64,000 bases of DNA from a virus. Its lineage: Duplodnaviria > Heunggongvirae > Uroviricota > Caudoviricetes. The DNA is taken from the IMG/VR virus record IMGVR_UViG_3300025682_000004; one strand, written 5' to 3'. The position numbers were made by a program, and so were the translations under genes. This document shows positions 5,869 through 64,000 of the stretch, in pieces (position 1 is the stretch's first letter; the number at the start of each line of letters is the position of its first letter). The notes under the pieces were generated by a model, which ran no database searches, was not told where the DNA came from, and saw only the letters and a program-made list of their open reading frames with translations.

Positions 5869-6468
5869 TTATTCATTAATAATACAATTTTTTATTTTTG
5901 TTTTTATATAATTAACCCTGTTACTTATAGTATTACTACTCATATTAAATTCTTTACCAATTTCACAATACGAATAACCCAACACATATTTCATTTCAAA
6001 AAATTTAGAATCTTGACATGAAACATCACTAAAAATATTATTAATTGTATTTGTTGTTTCAAAGCAAATTAAATTAGAATCATTATATTTCTCAAAATCA
6101 GTATAGTTTGAAGAATAATTATAAATTGTATCTAAACTTATTGTTACATTTTTATTATTTAATGAATATCTCCATTTATCAATAACGTAATTATTGGCAA
6201 TACTAATAACCCAAGAACTAAATTTAGATTTATTAAAATCGTAACTATGTAAATTACAAAAAACACGCATTAAAATTTCAGAAACATCATCTTCAATATC
6301 AAATTCTGAATAAAAATTTTCTTTATTTTTTTTTCTTAAATAATTTTTTAAAAATGTTTTATATTTACAATATAAATTATTTTCAGATTTTTTATCACCA
6401 TTTTTTATATTTTGAATCAATTCTATATCTTCCATTAAAATTTTTTTTAAGAACAAATTGGTCATCAA
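5869..6468 (-). CDS. ECF-type (sigma-70 group 4) RNA polymerase sigma factor; true start probably MEDIE near 6435
   Basis: Region 2 (DIEDDVSEILMRVF...SKFSSWVISIANNYVIDKWR) and region 4 HTH (GYSYCEIGKEFNMSSNTISNRVNY). Confidence 0.88.
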   Translation of the reverse strand: MMTNLFLKKILMEDIELIQNIKNGDKKSENNLYCKYKTFLKNYLRKKNKENFYSEFDIEDDVSEILMRVFCNLHSYDFNKSKFSSWVISIANNYVIDKWRYSLNNKNVTISLDTIYNYSSNYTDFEKYNDSNLICFETTNTINNIFSDVSCQDSKFFEMKYVLGYSYCEIGKEFNMSSNTISNRVNYIKTKIKNCIINE

Positions 6469-9516: not shown

Positions 9517-9825
9517 TTAAATGAAATAATTACCAGATTCTTTTAAAATCTTAATATTTTCTTCAATTTTTTTACATTCATCTAAAAAAGATAATTCAAT
9601 ATCTAATGTTAAATTAAACCATTCTCCTTCCATTCTTAAATAAGAATATTTTCGTTGTAATGTTTTTTCTATCAAATTTGCAAATTCTGATTGGTATATT
9701 TCAACCAACTTTAATTTTGAAGAATTTCCTGTTTGTAATTGATTCAATCTTTTATTTGGATGTTTTGATAAACCTATCTTATAAAAACCATCATCTAACG
9801 ATTGAATTAAATAAATATATCTCAT
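9517..9825 (-). CDS. GIY-YIG (T5orf172/MUG113-like) nuclease
   Basis: YIYLI...YKIGLSKHPNKRLNQLQTGN...EKTLQRKY...GEWF pattern. Confidence 0.85.
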   Translation of the reverse strand: MRYIYLIQSLDDGFYKIGLSKHPNKRLNQLQTGNSSKLKLVEIYQSEFANLIEKTLQRKYSYLRMEGEWFNLTLDIELSFLDECKKIEENIKILKESGNYFI

Positions 9826-29000: not shown

Positions 29001-29564
29001 TTATTTTAATTTTATAATTTCTTCATTAATTATATTCAAAAGATTATATTTAGATTCAACTAAAATAATATTTTCATCAATAATTTTATAAATATTAAAC
29101 AAAATGTTATTAGATATTTCTTTTTTTATATTTTTATAAGAAATTATATCGACATCCCTATCGTCATAAACGCTAATTGTTTTTAAATTTGGATATTTAT
29201 TAATGTATTTTAAAATTCTATTACCTTTATCTAAATCATTGTTTTTCATATCTAAATAATCAACATTAATATTATTAACATCCAAAATTTTTTGAACATA
29301 AGGTCTTAATCTTTCAATTCTTGAAGTTAAAATAATAACATAAGTATTTGGTTTATTTATTGCATCTTTTAATTGATTTAATACTGATTGAATGGGTTTA
29401 ATATCAAAAACATTTAAATCTAAACTTTCACTTCTACCCCACCAACCTAAATATGGATATTCTTTATTATAATATTCAGACCAATACCTTTTACCATATT
29501 CTGGTTCTGGTGTTTGAAATAATGTACCATCAAAATCAAATGCTTCTAAATTTTCTATTAACAT
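29001..29564 (-). CDS. HAD-superfamily phosphatase (Swiss-army-knife RNA-repair-type)
   Basis: Motif I FDFDGTLFQTP, motif II ILTSR, motif IV VYDDR. Confidence 0.8.
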   Translation of the reverse strand: MLIENLEAFDFDGTLFQTPEPEYGKRYWSEYYNKEYPYLGWWGRSESLDLNVFDIKPIQSVLNQLKDAINKPNTYVIILTSRIERLRPYVQKILDVNNINVDYLDMKNNDLDKGNRILKYINKYPNLKTISVYDDRDVDIISYKNIKKEISNNILFNIYKIIDENIILVESKYNLLNIINEEIIKLK

Positions 29565-29573
29565 ATAATAATA

Positions 29574-29957
29574 TTATTCAAATTTTATTTCAGTAACTCT
29601 ACCAACAATATTAAACGGTCTTTTAAGTAACTTCCAATTTACTAAGTTGTTTGATAATTTGGGTACTCCATCATTTTTACGATTTACTCCTAATGTTATG
29701 TGTGGTATTTTATTTTTACTAGGAAAACCACTTACTCCAACAGCAATAACTTTATCGTCCATTGCAATAGTATTTACACTTAAACGTACAGTCATACCTA
29801 AATATTTTTCATATTCGGGACTAATTTCACCAAGATTAATGGTCATATGATGTGCAATAATTTCCCAATCTTCAGGTATTTCATTTTTAAATCTATTAAT
29901 TAATTTGTTTCTTGAATTTTCATCAAGAACAACTGCACTATAAAGAACATTACTCAT
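29574..29957 (-). CDS. 2H phosphoesterase (tRNA-ligase CPDase-like)
   Basis: Two HxT motifs: AHHMTINLG and IPHITLG. Confidence 0.8.
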   Translation of the reverse strand: MSNVLYSAVVLDENSRNKLINRFKNEIPEDWEIIAHHMTINLGEISPEYEKYLGMTVRLSVNTIAMDDKVIAVGVSGFPSKNKIPHITLGVNRKNDGVPKLSNNLVNWKLLKRPFNIVGRVTEIKFE

Positions 29958-31489
29958 TTATATCCATTCATTCTTTTTAATAATCCGTAAAAAGATTCAT
30001 TTAATTTATTTTTATTTTGTTCTAAAACATCAAGATATTCATCTTCAACACCCAAAATTTTTGCAACATCTATTGGTGCAACTTTTTTTGCTGGTCTTAA
30101 TTTAATATTATTATCACTTTCTGTGACAACTTCCAGTTGTTTATTAATATAATTTAATAATAAATTAACAACACCAGTTACCGTATCAAACACTCTAATC
30201 ATTGCATCTTTATCAGCACCCCAAATTGCAACATAATTGAAAGATGTTGTTTTTAAATCAAAACCATATGATGCCAATATCATCCATGCAGATAATTCTG
30301 CTTGTTGTTCTACTAATTCACGACCTTCAGAAGTACCAACAAAATATCGGGCAAATTCAGATTTTTTATTTTTTAAATATGTTTGATGTAACAATTCATG
30401 GCTTATTTCATGTGCTAATGTTTTAGTAATACCAACATCATTACCTTCATTTTTTAATAATTTAATATATCCACCACCACTAGAACCCCTAGCACCACCC
30501 AAATCATCCACCATTCTTATTTCAATACCGTTATCATTACAAAAATTTAATAATGCATTATAAATGGGTTTAACTTCTTCAGAAATCATATCTTCCTCAA
30601 ACCATTTAATTTCATTAAAATTTTCATAATCACCCAATAAATTTTCTTTACCTTCCATTTGTTTTGTGTTAGATACATCATAAACAGGAGTATATTCAAA
30701 ATTATGTTTAACAAATTTACCACGTAATTCAACACCCAATCTTTCTTTTTCACCAGCATTTAAATCTTCATATTTTTTCTTATTAACAGAAATTAAAAAA
30801 TTTTTAATAATTTTAACCTTTTCTTCTTTACTATATTGTCTTAATGCACTTTTAGCGGGTGAACAAATTATCATTCTTTTAGTTTTATCAATAATTTCCC
30901 TATTAAATTTATTCCAATTATATTCACTTTTTACTAATCTTGCTTCTGGGTTTTGTAACCAAATAAGTATTGAATTCCTAAAACTATATTGATGACCTTG
31001 TGCGTTTTTAAAACTACTTATAATTTGCATTGTTTTTTTAAATTCTTCATCATTATCAAGATTAACAATTGTTTCTTTAAATCCATTAAGTTTATCGATA
31101 ATTTTCTTTTTTTCTTCATCTGTTATAGTACCATCTTCGATATTCGATGATGTTTCTGCTGATTTTATTTCACCCACAATATCATCTAACGATGCTATTA
31201 AAGATGCTTTGCTATCATCTTCCGATGCCCCTTCCAATCCATGTACTTCTTTTAACGCTGGTTCAATAAAACGCTTGTAAACATTTCTCCATTGGTCTTC
31301 TGTTTTTCCAATATACCAAAACCAAAATTTTCCATTAGAATCCCATTTAGCACCATGTTTTTTAAATATATCTTTATATTTAAATGTTTCTGTGTTTTCA
31401 GGTAAATTGGGGTCTATATATGCAATAGGATTTCCTTTTAAATCATACTTTTTACTAACTTTAAATGCTTCATTTAGAATTTTTTTCAT
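29954..31489 (-). CDS. ArdC-like ssDNA-binding/zincin-like metallopeptidase protein
   Basis: HQYSFRNSILIWLQNP (ArdC-N-like), PVYDVSNT, KTLAHEISHELLH (HExxH), EQQAELSAW. Confidence 0.75.
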   Translation of the reverse strand: MKKILNEAFKVSKKYDLKGNPIAYIDPNLPENTETFKYKDIFKKHGAKWDSNGKFWFWYIGKTEDQWRNVYKRFIEPALKEVHGLEGASEDDSKASLIASLDDIVGEIKSAETSSNIEDGTITDEEKKKIIDKLNGFKETIVNLDNDEEFKKTMQIISSFKNAQGHQYSFRNSILIWLQNPEARLVKSEYNWNKFNREIIDKTKRMIICSPAKSALRQYSKEEKVKIIKNFLISVNKKKYEDLNAGEKERLGVELRGKFVKHNFEYTPVYDVSNTKQMEGKENLLGDYENFNEIKWFEEDMISEEVKPIYNALLNFCNDNGIEIRMVDDLGGARGSSGGGYIKLLKNEGNDVGITKTLAHEISHELLHQTYLKNKKSEFARYFVGTSEGRELVEQQAELSAWMILASYGFDLKTTSFNYVAIWGADKDAMIRVFDTVTGVVNLLLNYINKQLEVVTESDNNIKLRPAKKVAPIDVAKILGVEDEYLDVLEQNKNKLNESFYGLLKRMNGYK

Positions 31490-31658
31490 TAATATTAATA
31501 TTTAAATCAGTGTTATTTTTTTCGTTTTCAAAATCACTATTCATAAAATCATTGTAAGTGGTTTTTAAACTTTCATCAATGAGAATACTTTTATATTCTT
31601 TTTCAACACCTAACACTTTTGCAATATTTAAAGGTGTAATTAATTTTGCTTGTTTCAT
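31470..31658 (-). CDS. Small protein paralogous to the C-terminal tail of the ArdC-like protein
   Basis: KQAKLITPLNIAKVLGVEKEY versus RPAKKVAPIDVAKILGVEDEY. Confidence 0.55.
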   Translation of the reverse strand: MKQAKLITPLNIAKVLGVEKEYKSILIDESLKTTYNDFMNSDFENEKNNTDLNININEKNSK

Positions 31659-31718
31659 AATAAATACTTTTAATAATTATTTAACTATATACGAAAATAA
31701 TAAAAAAATGTTACAATA

Positions 31719-33764
31719 TCAACCTGTTGATTCAATAAATTCAATTTGTTTTACTGGTATTTTTTCTGGTGTTTCATATCTTTTTGATGATGCACGATGT
31801 GTATAACAAAAAAAGCCCCTTTTATCCGCACCTAATGAAACACCATTAGATTTTTTTGTTTTATTTAAAAATTCTTCAGGTTTATTCAATCCTAAAACAA
31901 TACCACCATAAGAAGGAATTGTTTTATATGTACTACCACCACCCAAATATTGTAAAATTCTTTCTTTCATTTCTTTTGATATTGTTTTGGATTTTAATAT
32001 TGATTCTTTTGTTCTACTATATTTAGATTTTTTTTCTTCATTCAAAGAATTTAAATTTAAAATATCTTTATTCTTATTTTTATCTGAATACACCAATTTA
32101 TTACCAAATAATGAATATGTTTTTTTTAATTTTTTTATGTATTTTTTTCCCATACCCCTTTTCACATAAGAAATTGTCATATGTGGTTTATAATCTGAAT
32201 AATCTGATGTATGTGGAAATTTTTTAATAAATTTATTAATTTCAACTAAATCATCAGAATCAACATCAAATTTCACAACATCATAATCAGAATTTTCAAA
32301 AATTGAAATTTCATTTATTTTTATTTCTATTGGTTTTAAATTAAAATTGTTTTTTATTTCATCAAAAAGAACATTTGGTTTAACATCATCATGAAACCCA
32401 TATAATATTGTAACATGTGGTTCATTTTCAATACCATATCCATCTAAATCGTAAATATCTTCTTTTTTTATTAATGATGTGATATAATTCCATTTAGGTA
32501 TATCAAAAAACAACATTAAACAACCATACTCAATGTTATCATTTTTTTTGACTTCATTAATAAATTTCTTTTGTTTTAAAAAATCAACTAATTCTTCTTT
32601 ATTATTATTAATTTTATCAGAATAAATATTTAATAATAAATTCTTCATGGCATTTCCAATTTCAATACCTTTTAATCCTAAACTAATTAAATCATTACCA
32701 TTTATAGCAAGTTCAATTGTTGTTTTAGGATATTTACCATTTAACAATTCTTGACATGCATTTTTTAATATATCTGGTATAATTTGACTTTTTAATGTTT
32801 GAGGTGAAATTACATACATATTATGTGCAATCATTCTTGCTTCTACATTATTTGTAATTTCTTTTGAAAAGGCTTGTTCCAACCCTTTAATTTCTTTATA
32901 TGTGTTAATATCACCCTTTAAATCATTTTTATAAAAATCAGATGCTATTTTAGTTGAATTATTAGACAATAAAAAAATAAATTCACCAAGAGTTTTTACA
33001 TTATTCCATATTTTATCATCTTTACGATATATTTTAATTTTACCACTTATATTACCAAAAATTTCTTTTAACAACCCACTTTGTTTAAGTAATAATGCAC
33101 CAATTTTACAATCACCTTTAGTTACAATTTTTTCAAGTTCAATCAATATTCTTTCTGGACTAATTTCCTTAATTCTACCCACATTATCCCTAATCATTTT
33201 CATTGTCATTGGTTCTATTACATATTTAAAACGACTTCCAAAACTAATCATTCTTAACATTCTAAGTGGGTCGTCTTTAAATGCATCAGGATTTGCAGCA
33301 GAAATTTGTCTATTTTCAATATCTTTTAAACCACCCAAAGGGTCAATAAATTTACTATTATTAATATTTATTGCCATTGCATTAAATTTAGCATCACGTC
33401 TTATTAAATCATCTTCAATTGATAAATTAGGATTGCTTTGAATATCAAACCCACGATAACCACCTTCACCACTTGGTCTTTCTTTTCTAGGTAATGCAAT
33501 ATCATAATCAATACCACTACCATCATTAAATTTAATAACACCAAACGATTTACCAACAATATCAACTTTACCGAAATTTTCTAATATTTCTATAATTTTA
33601 TCGATAGATAAATTACGAATAACTAAATCTATATCCTTGTTTGGTTTATTTAATATTAAATCTCTAACAACACCACCGACTAAATAAACATCACCACCAT
33701 TATTAATTAATTCTTCTATAAATGGTTTTTGTTTAATTTTATTTATGAAATTTCTTATTTTCAT
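31719..33764 (-). CDS. CCA-adding/poly(A) polymerase family nucleotidyltransferase fused to a 2H phosphoesterase (Acb1/gp57B-like) and a C-terminal domain
   Basis: LVGGVVRD..L...KDIDL, DYDIALPRKE, DDLIRRDAKFNAMA, DPLGG, DDPLRMLR; 2H motifs PHVTILYG and KPHMTISY. Confidence 0.88.
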   Translation of the reverse strand: MKIRNFINKIKQKPFIEELINNGGDVYLVGGVVRDLILNKPNKDIDLVIRNLSIDKIIEILENFGKVDIVGKSFGVIKFNDGSGIDYDIALPRKERPSGEGGYRGFDIQSNPNLSIEDDLIRRDAKFNAMAININNSKFIDPLGGLKDIENRQISAANPDAFKDDPLRMLRMISFGSRFKYVIEPMTMKMIRDNVGRIKEISPERILIELEKIVTKGDCKIGALLLKQSGLLKEIFGNISGKIKIYRKDDKIWNNVKTLGEFIFLLSNNSTKIASDFYKNDLKGDINTYKEIKGLEQAFSKEITNNVEARMIAHNMYVISPQTLKSQIIPDILKNACQELLNGKYPKTTIELAINGNDLISLGLKGIEIGNAMKNLLLNIYSDKINNNKEELVDFLKQKKFINEVKKNDNIEYGCLMLFFDIPKWNYITSLIKKEDIYDLDGYGIENEPHVTILYGFHDDVKPNVLFDEIKNNFNLKPIEIKINEISIFENSDYDVVKFDVDSDDLVEINKFIKKFPHTSDYSDYKPHMTISYVKRGMGKKYIKKLKKTYSLFGNKLVYSDKNKNKDILNLNSLNEEKKSKYSRTKESILKSKTISKEMKERILQYLGGGSTYKTIPSYGGIVLGLNKPEEFLNKTKKSNGVSLGADKRGFFCYTHRASSKRYETPEKIPVKQIEFIESTG

Positions 33765-44466: not shown

Positions 44467-44824
44467 TTTTTTTCTTTTTATAGGTAAGACGTTTTGTTTT
44501 TTTATTAAATTTAATAACTACATTATCAACTAAACACTGATTTTTATCAATCAAATCATAAACATTTTCAGGAAAAATACCAGACAACCATAATGCACTA
44601 ATAAAATTTTTTGGAATTACTTTAATATAAACATTATCCCCCTTTATATCAAAATCCAAAAATACAATATTTTCCCCAACTCCTTTGTTTTTTTGTAAAA
44701 TTTGAACAAAAGTCGCATGAGTTTTTGTTAAAACATCCTTATTCGATAAATCAATATTATTAAAAATTAAATACAATAAATAATTTTCAATAAAATTATT
44801 ACTAACTTGAAATTTACTTCCCAT
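44459..44824 (-). CDS. Hypothetical protein
   Basis: 121-aa ORF coupled between the helicase and polymerase genes. Confidence 0.6.
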   Translation of the reverse strand: MGSKFQVSNNFIENYLLYLIFNNIDLSNKDVLTKTHATFVQILQKNKGVGENIVFLDFDIKGDNVYIKVIPKNFISALWLSGIFPENVYDLIDKNQCLVDNVVIKFNKKTKRLTYKKKKNG

Positions 44825-47462
44825 ATTTACTTTTTATTTTCTCAATAACATCACTCAACACCGATTCTTCAACATTTGATGTATATTTTTCATTATCCAA
44901 CACTTTTATAATTTCTTCACGTTTAGTTTCAATTTTTGAATAAACATAATCATCTATTGTATCTAAAAATATTAATGGATATATATTTACAACATCCTTT
45001 TGACCAATTCTATGACATCTATCTGCTGCTTGGTCATATTCACCAACACTATATGGTAAAGTCATAATAAATAACTTACTTGCTGCTGTTAATGTCAATC
45101 CATAATTACTTGTTTGAATCGTACCTAAAAAGATTTTCATTTGATTATTTGGGTCTTGAAATGAATTAACAACATCTGAACGTTCTTCAATACTTTGATT
45201 ACCTGTATGTAAACCCGCCAAATTTCCAAAATATTTTTTTAATTCATATAGTGATTCTTTAAAATAATCCATAATAATCACCTTTTCACCAGTTTCTATA
45301 ATATTTTCAACCAATTCTATAATATGTTTTATTTTAACTTCCGATAAATATTGTCTTAATCGAAGCATTATAGTTAATGGATTATAACTTGGTTTATCAA
45401 TAAAATCGTTAACAACATCCTGTTCAATTTTATTATAGGTTGATAATTCATCATTTGTTAATTCTAATACAATTCTTTGATATATTTTATCAGGTAAATC
45501 ATTCAATACTTCAAATTTTCTTTTTCTATGAGTATATGGTGCTATTTTATAGTAAAGTTCTTCAAATTTTTGTTCCATTGTATTTTGAACATAACCCCAA
45601 CCATTTTCAAAATCATATGTCATACCACAATAATATTCATAAAAATATTTTTTTGTTGGAAAATCAATTGATGATATTTGATTTAAAACAGTATATAATT
45701 CATATGCTCTATTTGGTGCTGGTGTTCCACTTAAAAATAATTTACTAACTTTTTTATTTTTAAAAATGCCTTCTTTGAAAATTCTTTTAAAATTTTTATA
45801 AATATTTGTTTTTGTGTTCTTTAATTTTTGTGATTCATCACAAATTAAAACATCTATATTATTAATATTTAATTTATTCCATTTTAAATCAAATTTAGTT
45901 TTATTAGATGGATTAAAAAAATCATAGTTTATTATAATATATTTTGCTTCATTAATATCACAATCATTTTTTTTATAATTAACTACAAAAGCATTACTTT
46001 TTGTGAATTTCTTTACTTCATTAAGATAATTAAATTTTAATGAATTGGGTGTTATAACAACAACCCTTTCAAATTTATTCATTTCAACATAAAGAATACT
46101 AGATAACGTATTATGTGTTAAAATACAATGATTAGTTGCATATAGATGATTATCACAATCAACAGATATACATTGTGATTCTTTTTTACCAATATATTTA
46201 ACATCAACAATTAAACGATATGGTTGTATAATAAATTTATATTTATTTTTTATTTTTTTTGGCATAAAATCAAATGGTAGTGTAATTCTAATTAATTTAT
46301 CATCAACTATTTTACCAATACCACCCAAACTTTCAACCACAAATTGAACATCTTTAATTAACAATGTAGATTCTGATTCAAAAATAATTTCATTTCTAAT
46401 ATGAATATATTCACAATTTTCCAACAAACCATTTAATAGTTCAAACCTATCATCAATATTTGAATACATATAATCATTTGGAATAAAACTGTTTTTAGAA
46501 TTAATTTTATGTAATTCATAAAATTTTAATGATGCTTCAATTTGACCATCAGATATTTTTAAAAACTTTTGATTAAAATCACCACAATACAATAGCAAAC
46601 CTAAATTATATGGCTTAATTAAAAGATTTCTTTTTTCAAATGATATTGGTTTTATCATTGGAATTTCCCAACAATAAAAATTATTATTATCCACAATACC
46701 AAAATTTATAATATCTTCTAATGTTTTAACAACATATTTACTATTGTTAATATTTTTTACTTTCCAATAATGTTCAAGACATGATTTAGCAATTGTTCCA
46801 TCACTAAATTCAATTTCGTAAATATCTTTTAAACCTTGTGGATAAACACCAGTTACTTTTTTTGGTAATCCATCGTAACCAATAACATAATCACCAACAT
46901 TAACATCGCCCATTCTAATCCAACCATTTGGTGTTAATAATAATGAATCTAAATCTTGGGCTTTACCCAATCCCATTTCATGTGAAATTAAAGCATTACG
47001 TGTAGAATTTATAAATAATGCTGCAACTATTTGATGTGGATATAATTTAACATTTTCATTTAAATAACTATGACATTCATCCCAATACTTTTCATAATTA
47101 TTTTCTAATTCTTTTTTATATTCAATCCATTTTTCCTTCTTTTTATTTAATAAAATAATTTCTTCACGTTTTTTATTTTCAAGTAATTTTATTTTATTTA
47201 CTTGTTCCTTAAAAACATTTCGTGAATTTTCATCACCGAAATCAAAAAAAATTTTATCAGAATTTTTATATGATTTAATTAATTTAAATAACGATTGGGT
47301 AGTTATTTCCCATTTTTTTAAACCACCATTCCACTTACGTGTTTCTTCTGGTAATTTTTTTATTCTACCAACAATTTGTTCATTATATGGAAAATCTATA
47401 TAATAGGCTTGTCGTCTACCAATTCTTTCACAAGTAACAACAAATAAAAATTTAGATTGCAT
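44814..47462 (-). CDS. SNF2-family helicase/ATPase (HARP-like N-terminus), intein-interrupted
   Basis: LYPHQ, HEMGLGK/T, ICDESQKLK, LSGTPAPN, GLTLTAAS, QAADRCHRIGQ. Confidence 0.92.
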   Translation of the reverse strand: MQSKFLFVVTCERIGRRQAYYIDFPYNEQIVGRIKKLPEETRKWNGGLKKWEITTQSLFKLIKSYKNSDKIFFDFGDENSRNVFKEQVNKIKLLENKKREEIILLNKKKEKWIEYKKELENNYEKYWDECHSYLNENVKLYPHQIVAALFINSTRNALISHEMGLGKAQDLDSLLLTPNGWIRMGDVNVGDYVIGYDGLPKKVTGVYPQGLKDIYEIEFSDGTIAKSCLEHYWKVKNINNSKYVVKTLEDIINFGIVDNNNFYCWEIPMIKPISFEKRNLLIKPYNLGLLLYCGDFNQKFLKISDGQIEASLKFYELHKINSKNSFIPNDYMYSNIDDRFELLNGLLENCEYIHIRNEIIFESESTLLIKDVQFVVESLGGIGKIVDDKLIRITLPFDFMPKKIKNKYKFIIQPYRLIVDVKYIGKKESQCISVDCDNHLYATNHCILTHNTLSSILYVEMNKFERVVVITPNSLKFNYLNEVKKFTKSNAFVVNYKKNDCDINEAKYIIINYDFFNPSNKTKFDLKWNKLNINNIDVLICDESQKLKNTKTNIYKNFKRIFKEGIFKNKKVSKLFLSGTPAPNRAYELYTVLNQISSIDFPTKKYFYEYYCGMTYDFENGWGYVQNTMEQKFEELYYKIAPYTHRKRKFEVLNDLPDKIYQRIVLELTNDELSTYNKIEQDVVNDFIDKPSYNPLTIMLRLRQYLSEVKIKHIIELVENIIETGEKVIIMDYFKESLYELKKYFGNLAGLHTGNQSIEERSDVVNSFQDPNNQMKIFLGTIQTSNYGLTLTAASKLFIMTLPYSVGEYDQAADRCHRIGQKDVVNIYPLIFLDTIDDYVYSKIETKREEIIKVLDNEKYTSNVEESVLSDVIEKIKSKYGK
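46110..46961 (-). mobile_element. Ala1 intein (284 aa) with class 3 WCT signature and a degenerate LAGLIDADG-like region
   Basis: Starts AQDLDSLLLTPNGW after the Walker A Lys. Block B CLEHYW, block F SQCISVD, block G ILTHN followed by Thr+1. Confidence 0.9.
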
Positions 47463-60612: not shown

Positions 60613-60768
60613 ATTATTAATATCTTATACCATCAATTTTATTATTTTTATTGTTCACAAGTTTCATAACCTACTGACCGTACCCCCAATTAACAAATTC
60701 GACCATTTAAGGTCGATTTTATTTATAATAAATACAAAAGAATGTGATTAAAAACAAGATAAAATAAA

Positions 60769-60800
60769 AATTCCCCATAAAAAAAAACTTATGGGGAATT
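60769..60800 (-). terminator. Intrinsic terminator
   Basis: Perfect 12-bp inverted repeat AATTCCCCATAA-N8-TTATGGGGAATT with a T-run downstream on the minus strand. Confidence 0.8.
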
Positions 60801-60823
60801 CAAAATCAAAAAATATTTAGGAA

Positions 60824-61948
60824 TTACAAGTCAAATGGTTTCATTTTTCTTGCTTTTCTTTTCAATTCATTTAATTCTCTTAATGCATTTGGATTAAAAC
60901 TTTCTCTTTTAACAATACTCACCATATGATTAAATTCACTTTCAGATATTACTTGACCAACATATCCTTCGCTTTTTAAAACATAACTTTTTGGTGATGT
61001 TGATGATGTTGGTTGCCCATCAGTATCTAATGTAGCAGTAAATTCAATATCTAACAATTCTTGAATTTTTTCATGTACATTTAAAGTAATTGTTTCTTTA
61101 GTTTTTTTCAAAACCTTTTCAAGTAATTCAACAACATTACCATTATGATTAGTTTTCATATTTTGATATGTTGTATAGAAATCAATCTTTGATGTTTTCT
61201 TTTTCAATTCTGAAATAATAGCCAAAGAACCGTAACAATCACGAATCATTAAATTCCATACCTGTTCTGCATACGTAAATGATGGAAATTTATCAATAGC
61301 AACAATTTCACCATCAATAAGTACAATAACGCCAATTAAATTTTTTGGTCTTTCAAAATGAGCAATAAACTGTTCAAGTTTTTTATCGTACTTATCAAAA
61401 TACTTATCAAGATAATTACCCGTATTTGAATTAGTATCATTACCCAATTTATTAATTGCAGGATAAATTCTTGGATATCCACCACTTTTACCAATACTAT
61501 CAAATAACATTTCACGCATTGTTACAGGAATCATTCTAAATTCAGAAGTATTTTTAAAATGTCCACCTTGACTACCTTGAACACAACCAGCATCATGATA
61601 AGTAGTATTTCCATAAGATTCAACATAACCCGCTTTAATCATACCATGATTTTGAGCAACTTGTTTGGTCATAACAGCCATTTGTGTTGGTATAATAATT
61701 TCTTTATCATTACTATTCACAAAACTCATTTGACCATAACTTGAATTACTTGATTTGATTGATGTTAAAGGATTTCCAAATCGATTATCTAATGAATATT
61801 CATTATCCGTTGTTAAACAAACAATTTGCATATTCATAATAGATTGAACGATGATATTACCATCCATATCTTTTAATGGACGACAACCCTTTAATAATTC
61901 TGAAAATTCTCTTGTATTCATAGTATAATTTTTTTTAGTTATTAACAT
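60824..61948 (-). CDS. ARPP-1/DUF6569-like protein (assignment from memory); likely start MNTREF
   Basis: KQVAQNHGM, AGCVQ..QGG, HFERPKNLIGVIVLIDGEIVAIDKFPS pattern; adjacent to a vWA gene. Confidence 0.55.
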   Translation of the reverse strand: MLITKKNYTMNTREFSELLKGCRPLKDMDGNIIVQSIMNMQIVCLTTDNEYSLDNRFGNPLTSIKSSNSSYGQMSFVNSNDKEIIIPTQMAVMTKQVAQNHGMIKAGYVESYGNTTYHDAGCVQGSQGGHFKNTSEFRMIPVTMREMLFDSIGKSGGYPRIYPAINKLGNDTNSNTGNYLDKYFDKYDKKLEQFIAHFERPKNLIGVIVLIDGEIVAIDKFPSFTYAEQVWNLMIRDCYGSLAIISELKKKTSKIDFYTTYQNMKTNHNGNVVELLEKVLKKTKETITLNVHEKIQELLDIEFTATLDTDGQPTSSTSPKSYVLKSEGYVGQVISESEFNHMVSIVKRESFNPNALRELNELKRKARKMKPFDL

Positions 61949-63188
61949 TAATTTTATTAATACGACTTAAATTAGATTCTTCAAGCATAAGAACTTGATT
62001 TTCCAACCAACGCTTAGTGTCAATTTCAAGTAATCTTGCTGAAATTTGTGGTTGAATTGCAATTGGGTTATTAACTGCCATTGTAATAACATTATCACCA
62101 ATTTTTCTAACATTAGAATCCATTTCAGCACTTGTTATTGGGGAAATTTGAAATATTGGAATATCAATACCTGTTTCAATTTTCCAAACATCAATAATTT
62201 CATTCAATAACCCATCATAAATATTTTCATATCCATCGGTTAATATAAAAATAGCATCATATTGTAAATTAGATGTTTCATTCTTTTTTAATAGTTCAAT
62301 AAATGAACTACCCAAATCAGTAAAAATATCCTTAGTTTTTACAACAACATGATTTGTTACTGATTTTGACAATACTTTAGCAGTAAAATCAACAATTGCT
62401 CTTGGAGTATTTTTTGATTCAATTTTATTACCTGTCATTGAAATACTATCATCTTGAATAATACCAATATTTGTGTAATAAAAATCCTTTATTTTTCTTT
62501 TATTAGCAAGATTATCAATTGCATTTGTTAATTCTAAACTAAAACCATTTTCATATCCTGTTTTATATAATGCAAGAAAATCAGTTGCCTTATTTAAATC
62601 AACAGTTTTATCTACACCCAATTTAACATTAGATTTTGTTTGACGAACTTGTTGATTAATTGATGTAACTTCCACATTTTTACGAATTAACGCTTTAGTA
62701 GATTCTCTTTGTTCTTTATTAGACCATAAAACATGATATTGTGGATGTTTAATATCAGAAATCAAACCAATTAATACTTCTTCTGGTATTTTCTTTATAT
62801 CACTAATATCAATTTTTGCTTTTTGATATTCACTAATTAATGGAAAATCATTAACATCACTATACAAATCAACATCTTGTTTTTTCTTGAAAATAAAAAA
62901 CAATAATTTTATGGCTTTAATCAAATCACCATTATAATACTTTAAAACTAAACTATTTAAAATACCATGTTCTTTTGGTGTTAGTATAATTTGATTATTA
63001 TCAGTTAAAAGTAGTTTATTTCCAATTGATAATAAAATAGATATCATTTTTTCACCATATACATGTTTAAAAATTTTAGCAATTTTATTACGATATTTTA
63101 AACAATAAAATTCAAGATTTTCCTGCCCCCAAATAAAACCTAAAACAAATTTTCTTGACCTTTCATTATTAATTTTATTAATTTTCAA
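61935..63188 (-). CDS. vWA (MIDAS) domain protein, TROVE-like architecture, apparently lacking its N-terminus
   Basis: DDSISM (DxSxS), TDLG, FILTDGYEN. The track start is TTG with an in-frame TAA 16 codons upstream. Confidence 0.7.
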   Translation of the reverse strand: MKINKINNERSRKFVLGFIWGQENLEFYCLKYRNKIAKIFKHVYGEKMISILLSIGNKLLLTDNNQIILTPKEHGILNSLVLKYYNGDLIKAIKLLFFIFKKKQDVDLYSDVNDFPLISEYQKAKIDISDIKKIPEEVLIGLISDIKHPQYHVLWSNKEQRESTKALIRKNVEVTSINQQVRQTKSNVKLGVDKTVDLNKATDFLALYKTGYENGFSLELTNAIDNLANKRKIKDFYYTNIGIIQDDSISMTGNKIESKNTPRAIVDFTAKVLSKSVTNHVVVKTKDIFTDLGSSFIELLKKNETSNLQYDAIFILTDGYENIYDGLLNEIIDVWKIETGIDIPIFQISPITSAEMDSNVRKIGDNVITMAVNNPIAIQPQISARLLEIDTKRWLENQVLMLEESNLSRINKINVNN

Positions 63189-63259
63189 ATCTTGAAATAA
63201 TCTAAAGACATATGTTATGTGTAAGTGTTCCGTTTATCCTTCTAATCAACATTTCGGTT

Positions 63260-63860
63260 AAAAATTTTAAAAGAAAAACCCACCCACTTTTATAAATTCA
63301 TAAATTCGATAGTTTTTATTCTTCCATCATAATCCACCTCTATTTCACCATCTTTAAGTTTATCCCATATATTATTTACATACATAGAATTTCGTGTTAA
63401 ACCAGCAAATAGTTTTTTATAACCATCTTTTTTAAGTTCAGATATTAGTTTTTTATATAAAATTTTAGCAAATCCTTGATTTCTAAATCTTTCATCAACT
63501 GATATATTACCAACATTAGGTTGTCCATCTCTTTGTTCTTCAAATGATATAATTTCACTTCTATATGAAAGTTCAATAGTTCCTATTAATGTTTTATATG
63601 GTGTTGTATAAACATCAATACCCCACAATTTACCATCCTTTCCTCTAACAATCTTAAATTCTAAATCATTTTCATTCTCATATTTGTGGTATGATGATTT
63701 ATGATATGGTTCTAAATGATAACCATCTAAATTGTTTTCATTCAAAAATTCTCGTATAGTGGTTTTAATAAATTTTCTCAAATCTTTCATATATTTATTT
63801 TCTTTATATATAAATATTTTAAATTAAATTTCCCACCCTTCTTTTTCTTTTAAAATTTTT
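63260..63860. repeat. Inner perfect 19-bp inverted repeat 63260-63278 / 63842-63860, each arm next to CCCACCC
   Basis: AAAAATTTTAAAAGAAAAA and TTTTTCTTTTAAAATTTTT; CCCACCC at 63279-63285 and 63832-63838. Confidence 0.9.
63290..63790 (-). CDS. GNAT-family acetyltransferase
   Basis: Acetyl-CoA motif A VGNISVDERFRNQGFAKILYKKLI; N-terminal leader MKDLRKFIKTTIREFLNE. Confidence 0.85.
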   Translation of the reverse strand: MKDLRKFIKTTIREFLNENNLDGYHLEPYHKSSYHKYENENDLEFKIVRGKDGKLWGIDVYTTPYKTLIGTIELSYRSEIISFEEQRDGQPNVGNISVDERFRNQGFAKILYKKLISELKKDGYKKLFAGLTRNSMYVNNIWDKLKDGEIEVDYDGRIKTIEFMNL

Positions 63861-64000
63861 GTTCAATTCTCCGATTAATCATTCTACCTTAATAATCCAC
63901 ACCTACACATAACAAGGTGTATATGTAATGTGAGGTTCTGTGATATATTCATGTTTCCACTTCTAATCAAGTTCATTGGTTAAGTGAGGTTTAGTGTTTC

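Follow-up and report, generated by a model that had tools for sequence, protein, structure and literature searches.

The paired repeats at the end of the 64,000-nt stretch of phage DNA analyzed here (the window) mark the last unit of an array of three gene cassettes that was inserted as DNA in a Ro60-like gene of a large, AT-rich phage, probably at a secondary site of an integron-like phage system. This reading is based on an insertion with base-exact borders, an empty allele of the same phage, turnover of cassettes at a single point, covariation between the ends of related cassettes, and the linkage of a recombinase gene to cassette arrays in relatives. An earlier note on the window had interpreted the same repeats as an intron-like, bypass, or mobile RNA element that interrupts a vWA gene and loops out a GNAT gene. 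The features concerned are as follows (window coordinates).

60768-60801: terminator-like hairpin after the ARPP-1 gene
60824..61948, minus strand: ARPP-1 domain gene, which overlaps the end of the Ro60-like gene
61935..63213, minus strand: 3' part of the Ro60-like (TROVE plus vWA fold) gene, residues 124-548 of the uninterrupted allele
63214..64000, minus strand: GNAT cassette, last of three in tandem (full unit L001:9763-10577, 815 nt)
63214..63228, minus strand: outer helix 3' arm ACACTTACACATAAC, the final 15 nt of the cassette
63260..63278, minus strand: inner helix 3' arm TTTTTCTTTTAAAATTTTT, which pairs with 63842..63860
63279..63285, minus strand: trailer-side G-rich motif beside the inner helix (family consensus GTGnGTGG)
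63290..63790, minus strand: GNAT acetyltransferase ORF, 166 aa (Pfam PF00583, E 9e-8)
63737-63790, minus strand: leader peptide MKDLRKFIKTTIREFLNE, codons 1-18 of the GNAT ORF, common to unrelated cargo proteins
63802..63816, minus strand: TATTTATATATAAAG box, conserved in most of 37 aligned leaders and located 11 nt ahead of the ATG; a putative promoter or initiation region of the cassette
63832..63838, minus strand: leader-side G-rich motif beside the inner helix (family consensus GAAGGGTGG)
63842..63860, minus strand: inner helix 5' arm AAAAATTTTAAAAGAAAAA, which covaries in variants
63899..63913, minus strand: outer helix 5' arm GTTATGTGTAGGTGT, with an invariant GTTA core and a G at position 11 that gives a conserved G-T
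63916..64000, minus strand: P1 (5'-terminal hairpin), loop and 3' strand (stem 3' strand 63916-63934; 5' strand beyond the window)

The split Ro60-like gene

Judged against its homologs, the Ro60-like ORF in the window is truly 5' truncated: it encodes 417 aa, whereas nearly all of the 120 homologs listed, of 376 in total, have 540-548 aa. The earlier note had seen the reading frame continue upstream as protein-like sequence before reaching an in-frame TAA (63234-63236), and this continuation proved to be true homology, since YVFRLFQDLK aligns with YVLRLFVDLK of full-length homologs. The N-terminal exon that it had placed beyond the window was found on extension in locus L001. The first 123 codons lie ∼1.9 kb away (L001:8301-8668, about 1.1-1.5 kb past position 64000), and homolog residues 1-123 and 122-537 align to L001:8301-8669 and L001:10573-11829, respectively. 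The junction thus falls after residue 123, where base 63213 is the last of the Pro123 codon, whose first bases belong to the upstream part; the empty allele described below makes these borders base-exact.

By its predicted fold, the protein is Ro60/Rsr-like, with a HEAT-repeat ring followed by a vWA domain. A Pfam sequence search with it gave no match, but Foldseek with a predicted structure of the uninterrupted 548-aa allele (pLDDT 71.5) returned Ro60/Rsr in places 1-13 (E 2e-6, TM 0.42-0.48), and the gene carries the MIDAS motifs of vWA domains, DDSISMTG and LTDGYEN. The split leaves an upstream piece of 131 aa and a downstream one of 417 aa; in the allele of the window, TTG is the only start available to the latter, while in allele P0001 the inserted DNA supplies it with an in-frame ATG. 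In contigs from RNA libraries, the uninterrupted Ro60-like and ARPP-1 gene pair spans exactly the unit that ends at the 60768-60801 hairpin. Relatives of the Ro60-like gene had no DNA match in the GenBank phage collection, and a peptide-pattern search of IMG/VR gave none confirmed by tblastn. An analysis of dN/dS on the split gene had no power, as the strains are identical over the 1,278-nt downstream part.

DNA insertion and cassette turnover at one point

The Ro60-like gene is interrupted by a 1,909-nt DNA insertion made up of three tandem cassettes; in the L001 allele these encode, in order, a 71-aa protein, a 154-aa protein, and GNAT. We located the uninterrupted allele through the neighboring ARPP-1 protein. 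It was not among the matches listed by word-index protein searches, and exact patterns for the empty and the occupied junction had no match in IMG/VR. Four DNA contigs (L088, 75.5 kb; L089; L091; and L094) carry this empty allele as a 548-aa ORF reading GGAATACC|ATATGTC, and they match L001:7401-8668 at 100% and L001:10573-13000 at 99.96% identity. Different arrays occupy the same point in other contigs: MTase plus GNAT in L003, and another MTase in L086 and L087. All arrays in the Ro60-like gene end ...TAAC|ATATGTC. Because the genomes that carry these different cassette sets are 99.95 to 100% identical, exchange must be fast and ongoing. About half of the contigs represent the occupied allele, which is therefore tolerated.

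The true 5' end of the GNAT cassette (GGTTGGG...) lies 28 nt past the end of the window. An identical cassette occurs in another context, locus L006, and the boundary ...CACATAAC| is the same in all contexts. The crossover point is 63214|63213, or one base earlier (a C is common to both sides). A target-site duplication was considered and rejected: ATACC occurs just once at the empty site, and ATAAC forms the right border. The earlier proposal of a mobile, cargo-carrying element in the gene stands in that respect; however, the helices enclose the GNAT unit only, not the whole 1.9-kb interruption, and what interrupts the gene is three independent tandem units rather than one.

Nested helices are conserved and covary

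The two helices described earlier are present on the minus strand: the inner one pairs 63842-63860 with 63260-63278 at 19 of 19 positions, and the outer one pairs 63899-63914 with 63213-63228 at 15 of 16 positions, with one G-T. Both repeats are longer than chance would give: 63189-63914 holds a perfect inverted repeat of 19 nt, versus at most 15 nt in 500 dinucleotide shuffles of that segment. The two GGGTGGG copies inside the inner helix (63832-63838 and 63279-63285) were likewise confirmed and occur nowhere else in the window. They do not make a G-quadruplex a feature of the element, however, because four G3 tracts (two G3 runs on each side) are found in 1 of 37 distinct cassettes, that of the window itself; the boxes beside the inner helix are conserved as G-rich sequence, not as G3 tracts.

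Among the 37 canonical cassettes we found no compensatory changes in the arms, which are nearly invariant and show a few one-sided changes; covariation emerged only once divergent cassettes were compared. Outer arms from the same cassette pair at 13.9 of 15 positions, versus 10.6 of 15 for arms that do not belong together. Positions 5-9 and 12-14 show two to three types of Watson-Crick pair, GTTA/TAAC is invariant, and the G-T at position 11 is kept in 7 of 9 cassettes; in all, eight G-T pairs and no A-C pair were counted. The inner helix is missing from minimal cassettes, but in variant cassettes (L028a, L028b, L035, and L008b) it covaries, a flipped version included. The nested helices are thus real, selected structures. 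P1, whose position is filled by at least six unrelated stem sequences among the cassettes, favors the sense strand: of 51 distinct hairpins, 44 fold better there. When folded as single-stranded DNA, the cassette junction is predicted to form a single hairpin (−38.1 kcal/mol, z −6.0).

The promoter motif of its own that had been ascribed to the GNAT gene is present as a conserved TATTTATATATAAA(A)G box, which may serve as a cassette promoter or initiation region, but it does not match the σ70 consensus: a σ70 promoter scan gave fewer matches than shuffles did, and none at the conserved box.

A family of cassettes with shared design and shared leader peptide

More than 40 cassettes with one shared design occur in about 80 metagenome loci; the 82 leader cores from these loci reduce to 37 distinct canonical cassettes with unrelated ORFs. 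In the first loci compared (L006-L010), the DNA outside the cassettes has no similarity to the window or between loci. A cassette starts 4 nt before P1, a hairpin of free sequence, which is followed by a 15-nt arm beginning GTTA, a promoter-like box, the ORF, and finally a 15-nt arm that ends TAAC and can pair with the first. Larger cassettes contain a further helix, the 19-bp inner one of the window, while minimal ones have ∼100 nt of noncoding sequence that amounts to one hairpin and one 15-bp helix. The ...TAAC| border is exact beside at least eight unrelated flanks. Genomes have zero to three cassette matches, and at least some cassettes are intergenic. The same ORF can be seen behind different P1 hairpins, so homologous recombination within the conserved leaders also appears to reshuffle cassette parts.

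Most cargo proteins share an N-terminal peptide of 18 to 21 residues that ends L/I/V-N-E, with leaders of the types MKDLKQFIKTTIREFLNE, MSKEMREQINKVKNFxQFINE, and MELRKFIATTIREYLNE. In an alignment of 37 cargo proteins, mean column identity is 12%, and I8, N17, and E18 are each conserved at ≥90%. Recognizable cargo includes GNAT (three cassettes), ART-PolyVal (three; best E 1.6e-20), PARP (one), and, in L086, an N6_N4 methylase. No reverse transcriptase was found among the cassette cargo, which is GNAT, ART, or unrecognized. Otherwise unrelated proteins thus carry a common N-terminal peptide ending (L/I)-x-E, the motif cut by the T4 prohead protease. We matched a protease of this type (PF03420) in a distant complete relative only, and not in the nine fragmentary related records or the window ORFs scanned. 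That relative (G001, 289 kb) has a stranded cargo gene and trailer, without a recombinase. By analogy with T4-type phages, the cargo proteins are probably packaged into the capsid and injected, with the leader peptide as a putative capsid-targeting signal.

A recombinase and a primary site adjoin cassette arrays in relatives

A gene for a 265-aa Xer/IntI-type tyrosine recombinase (PF00589, E 2.5e-32, with a SAM_4 N-domain) was found in 12 loci; linked to cassette arrays, it lies at their 3' end in the same orientation. In every one of nine distinct loci, the array end reads ...TAAC|TATTATATAT (TAT(T)ATATAT) and precedes the start of the recombinase gene by ∼50 nt (49 to 62 nt), so that cassette arrays lie beside a recombinase gene with a primary site. 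The families nearest to the enzyme are XerA and integron integrase (PDB entries XerA 4a8e and IntI4 2a3v). Its best match is NF040815 (XerA/"integron integrase") at 179 bits, below the cutoff of 220, and it scores 152 bits in two stretches against TIGR02249, whose cutoff is 265; at 265 aa, it does not have the extra domain of IntI and is not classed as one. Neither the gene nor such an array end beside it was found in the window or in the 20 kb of L001. The insertion site in the Ro60-like gene, AATACC|ATATG, resembles the primary site, and we read it as a secondary one. The recombinase seen in relatives may be the enzyme that moves the cassettes, and the recombination site may work as a single strand. 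A model taken directly from integrons, with crossover within the GTT box, was rejected because arrays end ...TAAC| with no hairpin after the last cassette.

Alternatives to an integron-like system

On sequence alone, a DNA insertion with paired ends can mimic an intron, and an intron would explain several of our observations. The cassette or array would be removed from the Ro60-like mRNA by self-splicing, or be cut at the helix ends and rejoined by phage RNA-repair enzymes, and the gene would stay functional. The helices do bring the ends of the element together on the sense strand, covary, and tolerate G-U; the occupied allele persists; the phage encodes domains of the RNA-repair type (HAD_SAK_1, tRNA-ligase CPD, and a CCA-adding/2H protein); and three metatranscriptome assemblies have contigs of 2.7 to 2.8 kb in which the gene parts are joined seamlessly. 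We nevertheless give this reading very little credence. The junction-spanning RNA contigs are no evidence of splicing, because the same joined sequence exists as DNA in contigs of up to 75 kb from the same phage. In addition, the RNA runs contain no words of the GNAT cassette, and their share (0.51 to 0.61) is about that of the downstream gene part alone; these runs probably sampled the empty allele. Rfam searches at E values up to 10, over window positions 61000-64000 and L001:7400-10700 (which holds the whole insertion), returned only tRNAs and chance hairpins, with no intron or ribozyme. The last base of the element is C, or A with the border moved by one position, instead of the 3' G of group I introns, and its first bases are GGTTG instead of the group II GUGYG. 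Of group I we recognized neither the P3-P9 core nor the terminal G nor a U-G pair at a 5' splice site, a weak sequence test given that an ORF-sized loop can hide a core; of group II we recognized neither the 5' GUGYG, domain V, and 3' AY nor the reverse transcriptase ORF that is usual there. Minimal cassettes have no core beyond hairpin and helix, some cassettes lie between genes, and each of three tandem units would need removal. The proposal of an intron-like, bypass, or mobile RNA element is therefore not supported.

Transposition of single-stranded DNA by "peel and paste," as in the IS200/IS605 family, is a very unlikely alternative in our judgment; here an HUH (Y1) transposase acting in trans would cleave both the left flank and the 3' end of the element itself just after a TAAC-like pentanucleotide, guided by base pairing with GTTA. 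In IS608, cleavage sites are recognized by pairing with short guides beside the end hairpins (PMC3201880). Seamless insertion without target duplication, a target (ATACC or ATAAC) that resembles the 3' end of the element, a strand-specific 5' hairpin, and a fixed orientation would all suit such a mechanism. Against it, a search for Y1 transposases (PF01797) gave no match in five related viral records, in which controls matched, or in the window ORFs scanned; a local hairpin is missing at the right end, and it is a tyrosine recombinase that is consistently linked to the arrays. It is also unlikely that the cassettes have no dedicated mobility at all, with leader and trailer as conserved regulatory modules, as in promoter-stem-loop (PeSL) units, the helices as an RNase III-type processing or stabilizing stalk like that around rRNA genes, and homologous recombination doing the shuffling. 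Leaders are 80 to 100% identical over about 200 nt, one ORF can follow different P1 hairpins, long gene-flanking helices suit RNase III, and PeSL-mediated shuffling is documented in T4-type phages (PMC2839356, PMC4122927). Homology does not explain insertion at AATACC|ATATG, however, where the match is only ∼4 nt, nor do we see why different trailers would then end at the same base of the same site, why ...TAAC| would be exact at so many unrelated flanks, or why DNA borders would coincide with helix ends. Copies are also few per genome, unlike in T4-type genomes, which reportedly hold many PeSLs.

Comparison with known systems and a proposed mechanism

We prefer the integron-like reading, in which the helices would be the halves of a folded, attC-like recombination site, parted to either side of the gene upon integration. 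P1 would have an arm on each side in a cassette excised as a circle, and likewise where two units join in tandem, and the noncoding part would fold from one strand into a long bulged hairpin; the circle junction would read ...CACATAAC|GGTTGGGTG (CATAAC|GGTTGG). The primary site beside the recombinase gene, together with the arrays, would form an integron-like platform. As in integrons, sedentary chromosomal ones included, a polar array of small, unrelated cassettes in the same orientation lies beside a gene for a recombinase of the Xer/IntI clade, with a conserved primary insertion site next to that gene. The cassette site partly resembles attC: it is an imperfect palindrome whose AAC...GTT core is invariant and whose arms covary, one position is conserved as a non-Watson-Crick pair, and the apical hairpin varies; folding is strand biased, secondary-site insertions occur, and DNA methylases are among the cargo. 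The site cores, ACATAAC and GTTATGT, are each one base off RYYYAAC...GTTRRRY, with the core beside the apex and a crossover that splits the site around the ORF. Bottom strands of attC sites are cleaved ...AA|C, with which the cassette border is compatible.

There are also clear differences from integrons. The 265-aa enzyme falls below the integron-integrase cutoff and does not have the additional IntI domain, and the phage recombinase gene follows the 3' end of the array and is read in the same direction. Crossover lies next to the apical hairpin, whereas in attC it is at the base of the folded site; an integrated cassette therefore has an arm at either end, and these covary with the ORF between them. 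A promoter-like box is present in the cassettes, most of which also share a leader peptide; larger ones have a further helix and ∼70 nt of conserved loops, and the host is a lytic-type jumbo phage. Clusters of attC sites have been reported in virulent phages (Qi et al. 2023, PMC9892861).

Several phage systems share parts of this design. PeSL units, each a promoter plus stem-loop, flank accessory genes in hyperplastic regions where close relatives differ by whole modules (Arbiol 2010, PMC2839356; Comeau 2014, PMC4122927), and small circles have been proposed as intermediates; PeSLs, however, are short and numerous and move by homologous recombination, whereas the units described here are few per genome and have base-exact borders without homology, their ends pair and covary, and a tyrosine recombinase is linked to their arrays. 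The capsid-targeted internal proteins of T-even phages (IPI-III and Alt; reviewed in PMC3012670) are similarly unrelated small proteins that share only an N-terminal peptide and, with T4 Alt, include ADP-ribosyltransferases; the leader here differs in length (18 to 21 residues) and sequence, and its cleavage and packaging are proposed by analogy. IS608 also inserts seamlessly and in one orientation 3' of a short sequence like the element end, with no target duplication and with structured, strand-specific ends (PMC3201880), but for the cassettes we found no HUH transposase, there is a local hairpin at the left end only, and the ends pair with each other. The division of a conserved phage gene into two ORFs by a mobile unit with its own gene, persisting in the population, is shared with the split genes of T4-type phages. 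In Aeromonas phage Aeh1, for example, nrdA is split by mobE; the insertion in the Ro60-like gene, by contrast, is something other than a homing endonuclease gene.

Implications for phage gene exchange

One phage offers a natural experiment, with an empty site and at least three cassette sets at one base-exact intragenic position. Together with the covarying arms, these alleles fix the crossover point and the functional unit without bench work. Integrons are known as bacterial gene-capture platforms, but the cassettes, the primary site, and the simpler recombinase described here all belong to large lytic-type phages; published reports of classical integron fragments and attC clusters in phages read them as bacterial components carried by the phage (PMC9892861). 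It is close to an even chance, if slightly short of one, that large phages of sludge and freshwater run an integron-like gene capture of their own, with a short Xer-type recombinase and a site whose halves flank each integrated gene and come together again only once the cassette is excised as a single strand or a circle. A promoter of its own and a capsid-targeting leader would come with every cassette, and the array would be a library of injected effectors (acetyltransferases, ADP-ribosyltransferases, and methylases) that can be exchanged between otherwise unrelated phages, while insertions at secondary sites within genes would create presence/absence alleles in one population. If the leader is indeed a capsid-targeting signal, phages could in this way swap injected anti-host enzymes.

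A GNAT gene within nested inverted repeats

The window's minus strand ends in a GNAT gene enclosed by two nested inverted repeats:

63290-63790, minus: GNAT gene, 166 aa (PF00583, E 9e-8)
63842-63860 with 63260-63278, minus: inner inverted repeat, 19/19 complementary
63899-63914 with 63213-63228, minus: outer inverted repeat, 15/16 plus one G-T

Both helices drawn in the earlier note are present, and the 19-nt perfect repeat is longer than any found in 500 dinucleotide shuffles of 63189-63914 (longest, 15 nt). The 64 kb contain just two copies of GGGTGGG, one adjoining each inner arm; the G-quadruplex that the note had proposed does not hold as a family feature, because two G3 runs per side occur in only 1 of 37 cassettes. 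G+C in the window is 18-30%, ORFs lie nearly all on the minus strand, and the phage genes include baseplate gp25, a family B polymerase, and an Mre11/Rad50-like fusion.

Other minus-strand genes deserve mention. An SNF2-type helicase ORF (44814-47462), whose SNF2 match spans 550 residues, has within that domain a weak Hom_end-associated Hint match (E 1.6e-4) and may contain an intein. Domains of RNA-repair type cluster at 29001-33764: HAD_SAK_1, the CPD domain of fungal tRNA ligase, and a 2H phosphoesterase joined to a CCA-adding/poly(A) polymerase head. Anti-CBASS Acb1 is a further match of the 2H domain (E 5.6e-7). At 9517-9825, a short stand-alone gene encodes a GIY-YIG/T5orf172 nuclease of 102 aa.

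A split Ro60-like gene

The ORF downstream of the GNAT gene has 376 homologs, nearly all of the 120 listed being 540-548 aa long versus 417 aa in the window, and its residue 1 aligns with homolog residue 132. Looking up the exact GNAT protein yielded contigs that run past the window end, among them L001, which reads the window's minus strand as plus (L001 position x = window 73791 - x). The missing N terminus is a 130-aa ORF at L001:8301-8693. In alignment with a full-length homolog, residues 1-123 fall on L001:8301-8669 and residues 122-537 on L001:10573-11829. Joined there, ...GGA ATA CC and A TAT GTC TTT encode G-I-P-Y-V-F-R-L-F, and homologs have G-L-P-Y-V-L-R-L-F; thus, the earlier note was right that the frame upstream of the vWA ORF is protein-like and that an N-terminal part lies beyond the window.

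Pfam gave no match for the uninterrupted protein. A PDB fold search with its model (pLDDT 71.5) returned Ro60/Rsr at places 1-13 (E 2e-6, TM 0.42-0.48), and the split gene is Ro60-like, with a TROVE ring and a vWA domain. It is paired with an ARPP-1 gene (window 60824-61948, minus), whose product also weakly matches the Thoeris inhibitor Tad5 (E 0.0034, residues 244-311). Just upstream of the Ro60-like gene lies a tRNA cluster (L001:7655-8060, ∼1.7-2.1 kb past the window end) with two members above the Rfam cutoff and one below (25.7 bits); L085, an uninterrupted relative, has a longer cluster at the same place.

A DNA insertion rather than a demonstrated intron

Contigs of 2.7-2.8 kb from three metatranscriptome assemblies join the downstream part seamlessly to the end of the upstream part; their loose end, at 63218, reads as GCTTTGAATAATTTAAATATTGATAATGGA in reverse complement. 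By themselves, these joined RNAs look like products of splicing. We located the uninterrupted allele by look-up of the neighboring ARPP-1 protein: four DNA-metagenome contigs of the same phage (L088, 75.5 kb; L089; L091; and L094) carry an intact 548-aa gene, match L001:7401-8668 at 100% identity and L001:10573-13000 at 99.96%, and read GGAATACC^ATATGTC at the empty site (^ marks the border). At the same base, further contigs of this phage, with flanks 99.95-100% identical, carry a methylase unit plus GNAT (L003) or another unit, with an N6/N4 methylase and a divergent trailer (L086 and L087); about half of the neighborhoods returned were empty and half occupied. Since empty and variously occupied alleles occur in near-identical DNA contigs, the interruption is a 1909-nt DNA insertion without target duplication, polymorphic and in rapid turnover. 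None of the GNAT cassette appeared in the RNA runs, which most likely sampled the empty allele. The Rfam search proposed earlier matched no intron or ribozyme, and the element's ends are unlike those of group I or group II introns. Of the intron-like mobile element first envisaged, the mobility, the cargo, the interrupted gene, and the first part past the window stand; an intron is not demonstrated, and the element is instead a cassette of DNA belonging to an integron-like system in phages.

The contigs from RNA runs X15, X16, and X18 (window 61900-63218) cover the uninterrupted Ro60-like/ARPP-1 pair, approximately one operon. They begin near the start codon (14 nt inside to ∼72 nt upstream) and stop 40-90 nt before a terminator at 60768-60801, which weakly suggests transcription of the empty allele as one unit.

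The insertion comprises three tandem units, the GNAT unit being last:

L001:8669-8984: unit 1, 71-aa ORF
L001:8985-9762: unit 2, 154-aa ORF
L001:9763-10577: unit 3, GNAT

Units 2 and 3 have in common a ∼240-nt leader, the first 18 codons, MKDL(K/R)(Q/K)FIKTTIRE(Y/F)LNE, and a ∼80-nt trailer ending in CACTTACACATAAC. An identical GNAT unit occurs in another contig, L006, where an unrelated CorA-like gene directly follows ...CACATAAC; a GIY-YIG gene near that cassette (L006:8569-9324) differs from the window's GIY-YIG/T5orf172 gene.

In the window's allele, TTG at 63188 is the only start available to the downstream Ro60 piece, the trailer ATG (AAATGTTGATT) being out of frame with a TAA between. 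The L086 allele (858-2174, corresponding to window 61935-63213), with its other methylase cassette, has a variant trailer one base shorter that brings the same ATG into frame, giving a 438-aa ORF (P0001).

A family of cassettes with constant design

Exact-pattern scans with the leader core and trailer collected 58 loci from metagenomes and 4 + 17 viral ones, in which leader cores number 82 and distinct canonical cassettes 37. The first loci to be compared (L006-L010) have no DNA similarity, beyond the cassettes themselves, to the window or to one another. Each of four fragmentary relatives has zero or one leader core and two or three trailer-like matches; in G001, a complete relative of 289 kb, a single trailer is present and the leader core is absent. 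The G001 remnant (L084:2060-3400), cargo plus a canonical trailer ...ACATAAC^ without the usual leader, sits directly after a tmRNA-like 3' end. Its ORF and the next gene have an identical 22-residue N terminus, MKHIKLFEDFMNLDNLKGLQMI(D/N)E, which on sequence looks like a second leader-peptide type copied by duplication.

The order of parts is constant: ...(A/C)TAAC^G(G/T)YY, hairpin P1, TT, arm GTTATGTGTAGGTGT, conserved loop, inner arm, G-rich box, TATTTATATATAAA(A)G, and ATG with the ORF; then G-rich box, inner arm, conserved loop, and arm ACACTTACACATAAC^. P1 is represented by at least six unrelated sequences, all stem forming. Its sense strand is better folded in 44 of 51 distinct versions (mean difference, 4.8 kcal/mol), and 155 of 1299 stem pairs are G-U. 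One copy (L080:11840-12030) is inverted between ATAAC and GTTAT boxes, and here the antisense strand folds better (-24.8 versus -15.0 kcal/mol), suggesting that part of the site can invert. The window also encodes an ECF-type sigma factor (5869-6468, minus; Sigma70_r2 and r4 domains), which could read the conserved TATTTATATATAAA box.

Covariation of the arms

The arms are almost invariant in canonical cassettes; divergent cassettes supply the covariation test.

Table. Leader arm and own trailer arm of divergent cassettes
L028a: leader GTTATGTACAGGTGT; trailer GCACTTGTACATAAC
L028b: leader GTTATACACAGTACG; trailer AGTATTGTGTATAAC
L028c: leader GTTATGTGTAGTAAT; trailer ATTATTACACATAAC
L069b: leader GTTACCTGCTGGTGC; trailer GCACTTGCAGGTAAC
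L086: leader GTTATATGCTGGGCG; trailer AGCCTTGCATATAAC
L008b: leader GTTATATGCAGTGCG; trailer AGCATTGCATATAAC
First unit of the window phage's insertion: leader GTTATAAGTA...; trailer ...TACTTATAAC

Own pairs scored 13.9/15, versus 10.6/15 for non-own pairs: a leader arm's partner is the trailer of its own cassette, not its neighbor's. Positions 1-4 (GTTA/TAAC) are invariant, two or three kinds of Watson-Crick pair occur at positions 5-9 and 12-14, and position 11 is G-T in seven of nine cassettes; G-T pairs number eight, and A-C pairs are absent. The inner helix covaries as well (AAAAACTTTTTAAAAAT in L028b and L035, AACAAAAACAATT in L028a) and is flipped to a T-rich/A-rich version in L008b; minimal cassettes, among them L028c and unit 1 of the window phage's insertion, lack it. 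Selection thus acts on sense-strand pairing between the two ends of one cassette. Where cassettes abut in tandem, in the order that a circle junction also has, the trailer, P1, and leader form one long hairpin as single-stranded DNA (-38.1 kcal/mol, z -6.0; other strand, -33.0 kcal/mol, z -4.9).

Recombinase and integron-like platform

Six cassettes have in common the right flank TATTATATAT..., after which L028 encodes a 265-aa tyrosine recombinase (PF00589, E 2.5e-32; Phage_int_SAM_4). At 12 loci, homologs (49-80% identity) follow the cassettes and share their orientation, and the junction ...TAAC^TAT(T)ATATAT is ∼50 nt (49-62) before the recombinase start codon in 9 of 9 distinct loci. Its nearest families are XerA/"integron integrase," integron integrase, and XerC/D, all below cutoffs; the IntI match falls in two stretches, and PDB neighbors are XerA (4a8e) and IntI4 (2a3v). 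Neither the window nor L001 yielded this recombinase, nor did G001, though G001 has stranded cargo and trailer. By sequence, the relatives' arrays and recombinase likely constitute an integron-like platform with a shorter enzyme. Since the Ro60 site, AATACC^ATATG, resembles the primary site, insertion there would be a secondary-site event. The cut may be at ...TAA^C, because C precedes both borders; bottom strands of integron attC sites are cut at an ...AA^C type position.

Cargo and significance

Mean column identity among the 37 cargo proteins is 12%: M1 alone is invariant, with I8, N17, and E18 ≥90% conserved. Recognizable cargo includes GNAT (3), ART-PolyVal (3; best E 1.6e-20), PARP (1), and methylases. 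The common N-terminal peptide ends in L/I-x-E, the cleavage motif of T-even internal-protein peptides, on proteins that are otherwise unrelated, as are the T-even internal proteins. T-even phages load those proteins into the capsid via such a common peptide (PMC3012670). Only G001, a distant relative, yielded a prohead protease domain of T4 type (PF03420). By analogy with T-even phages, the leader peptide may be a capsid-loading signal for cassette cargo.

Classical integron pieces and attC clusters have been reported in phages (PMC9892861), and PeSL shuffling has been published for T4-type phages (PMC2839356, PMC4122927). New here are a base-exact, probably secondary-site insertion that interrupts a conserved gene; the coexistence, among near-clonal phages of one population, of an empty allele with several occupied ones; covariation of the arms across an ORF, which places the crossover beside the apical hairpin; an extended, two-helix version of the recombination site; and a common leader peptide on effector-type cargo.
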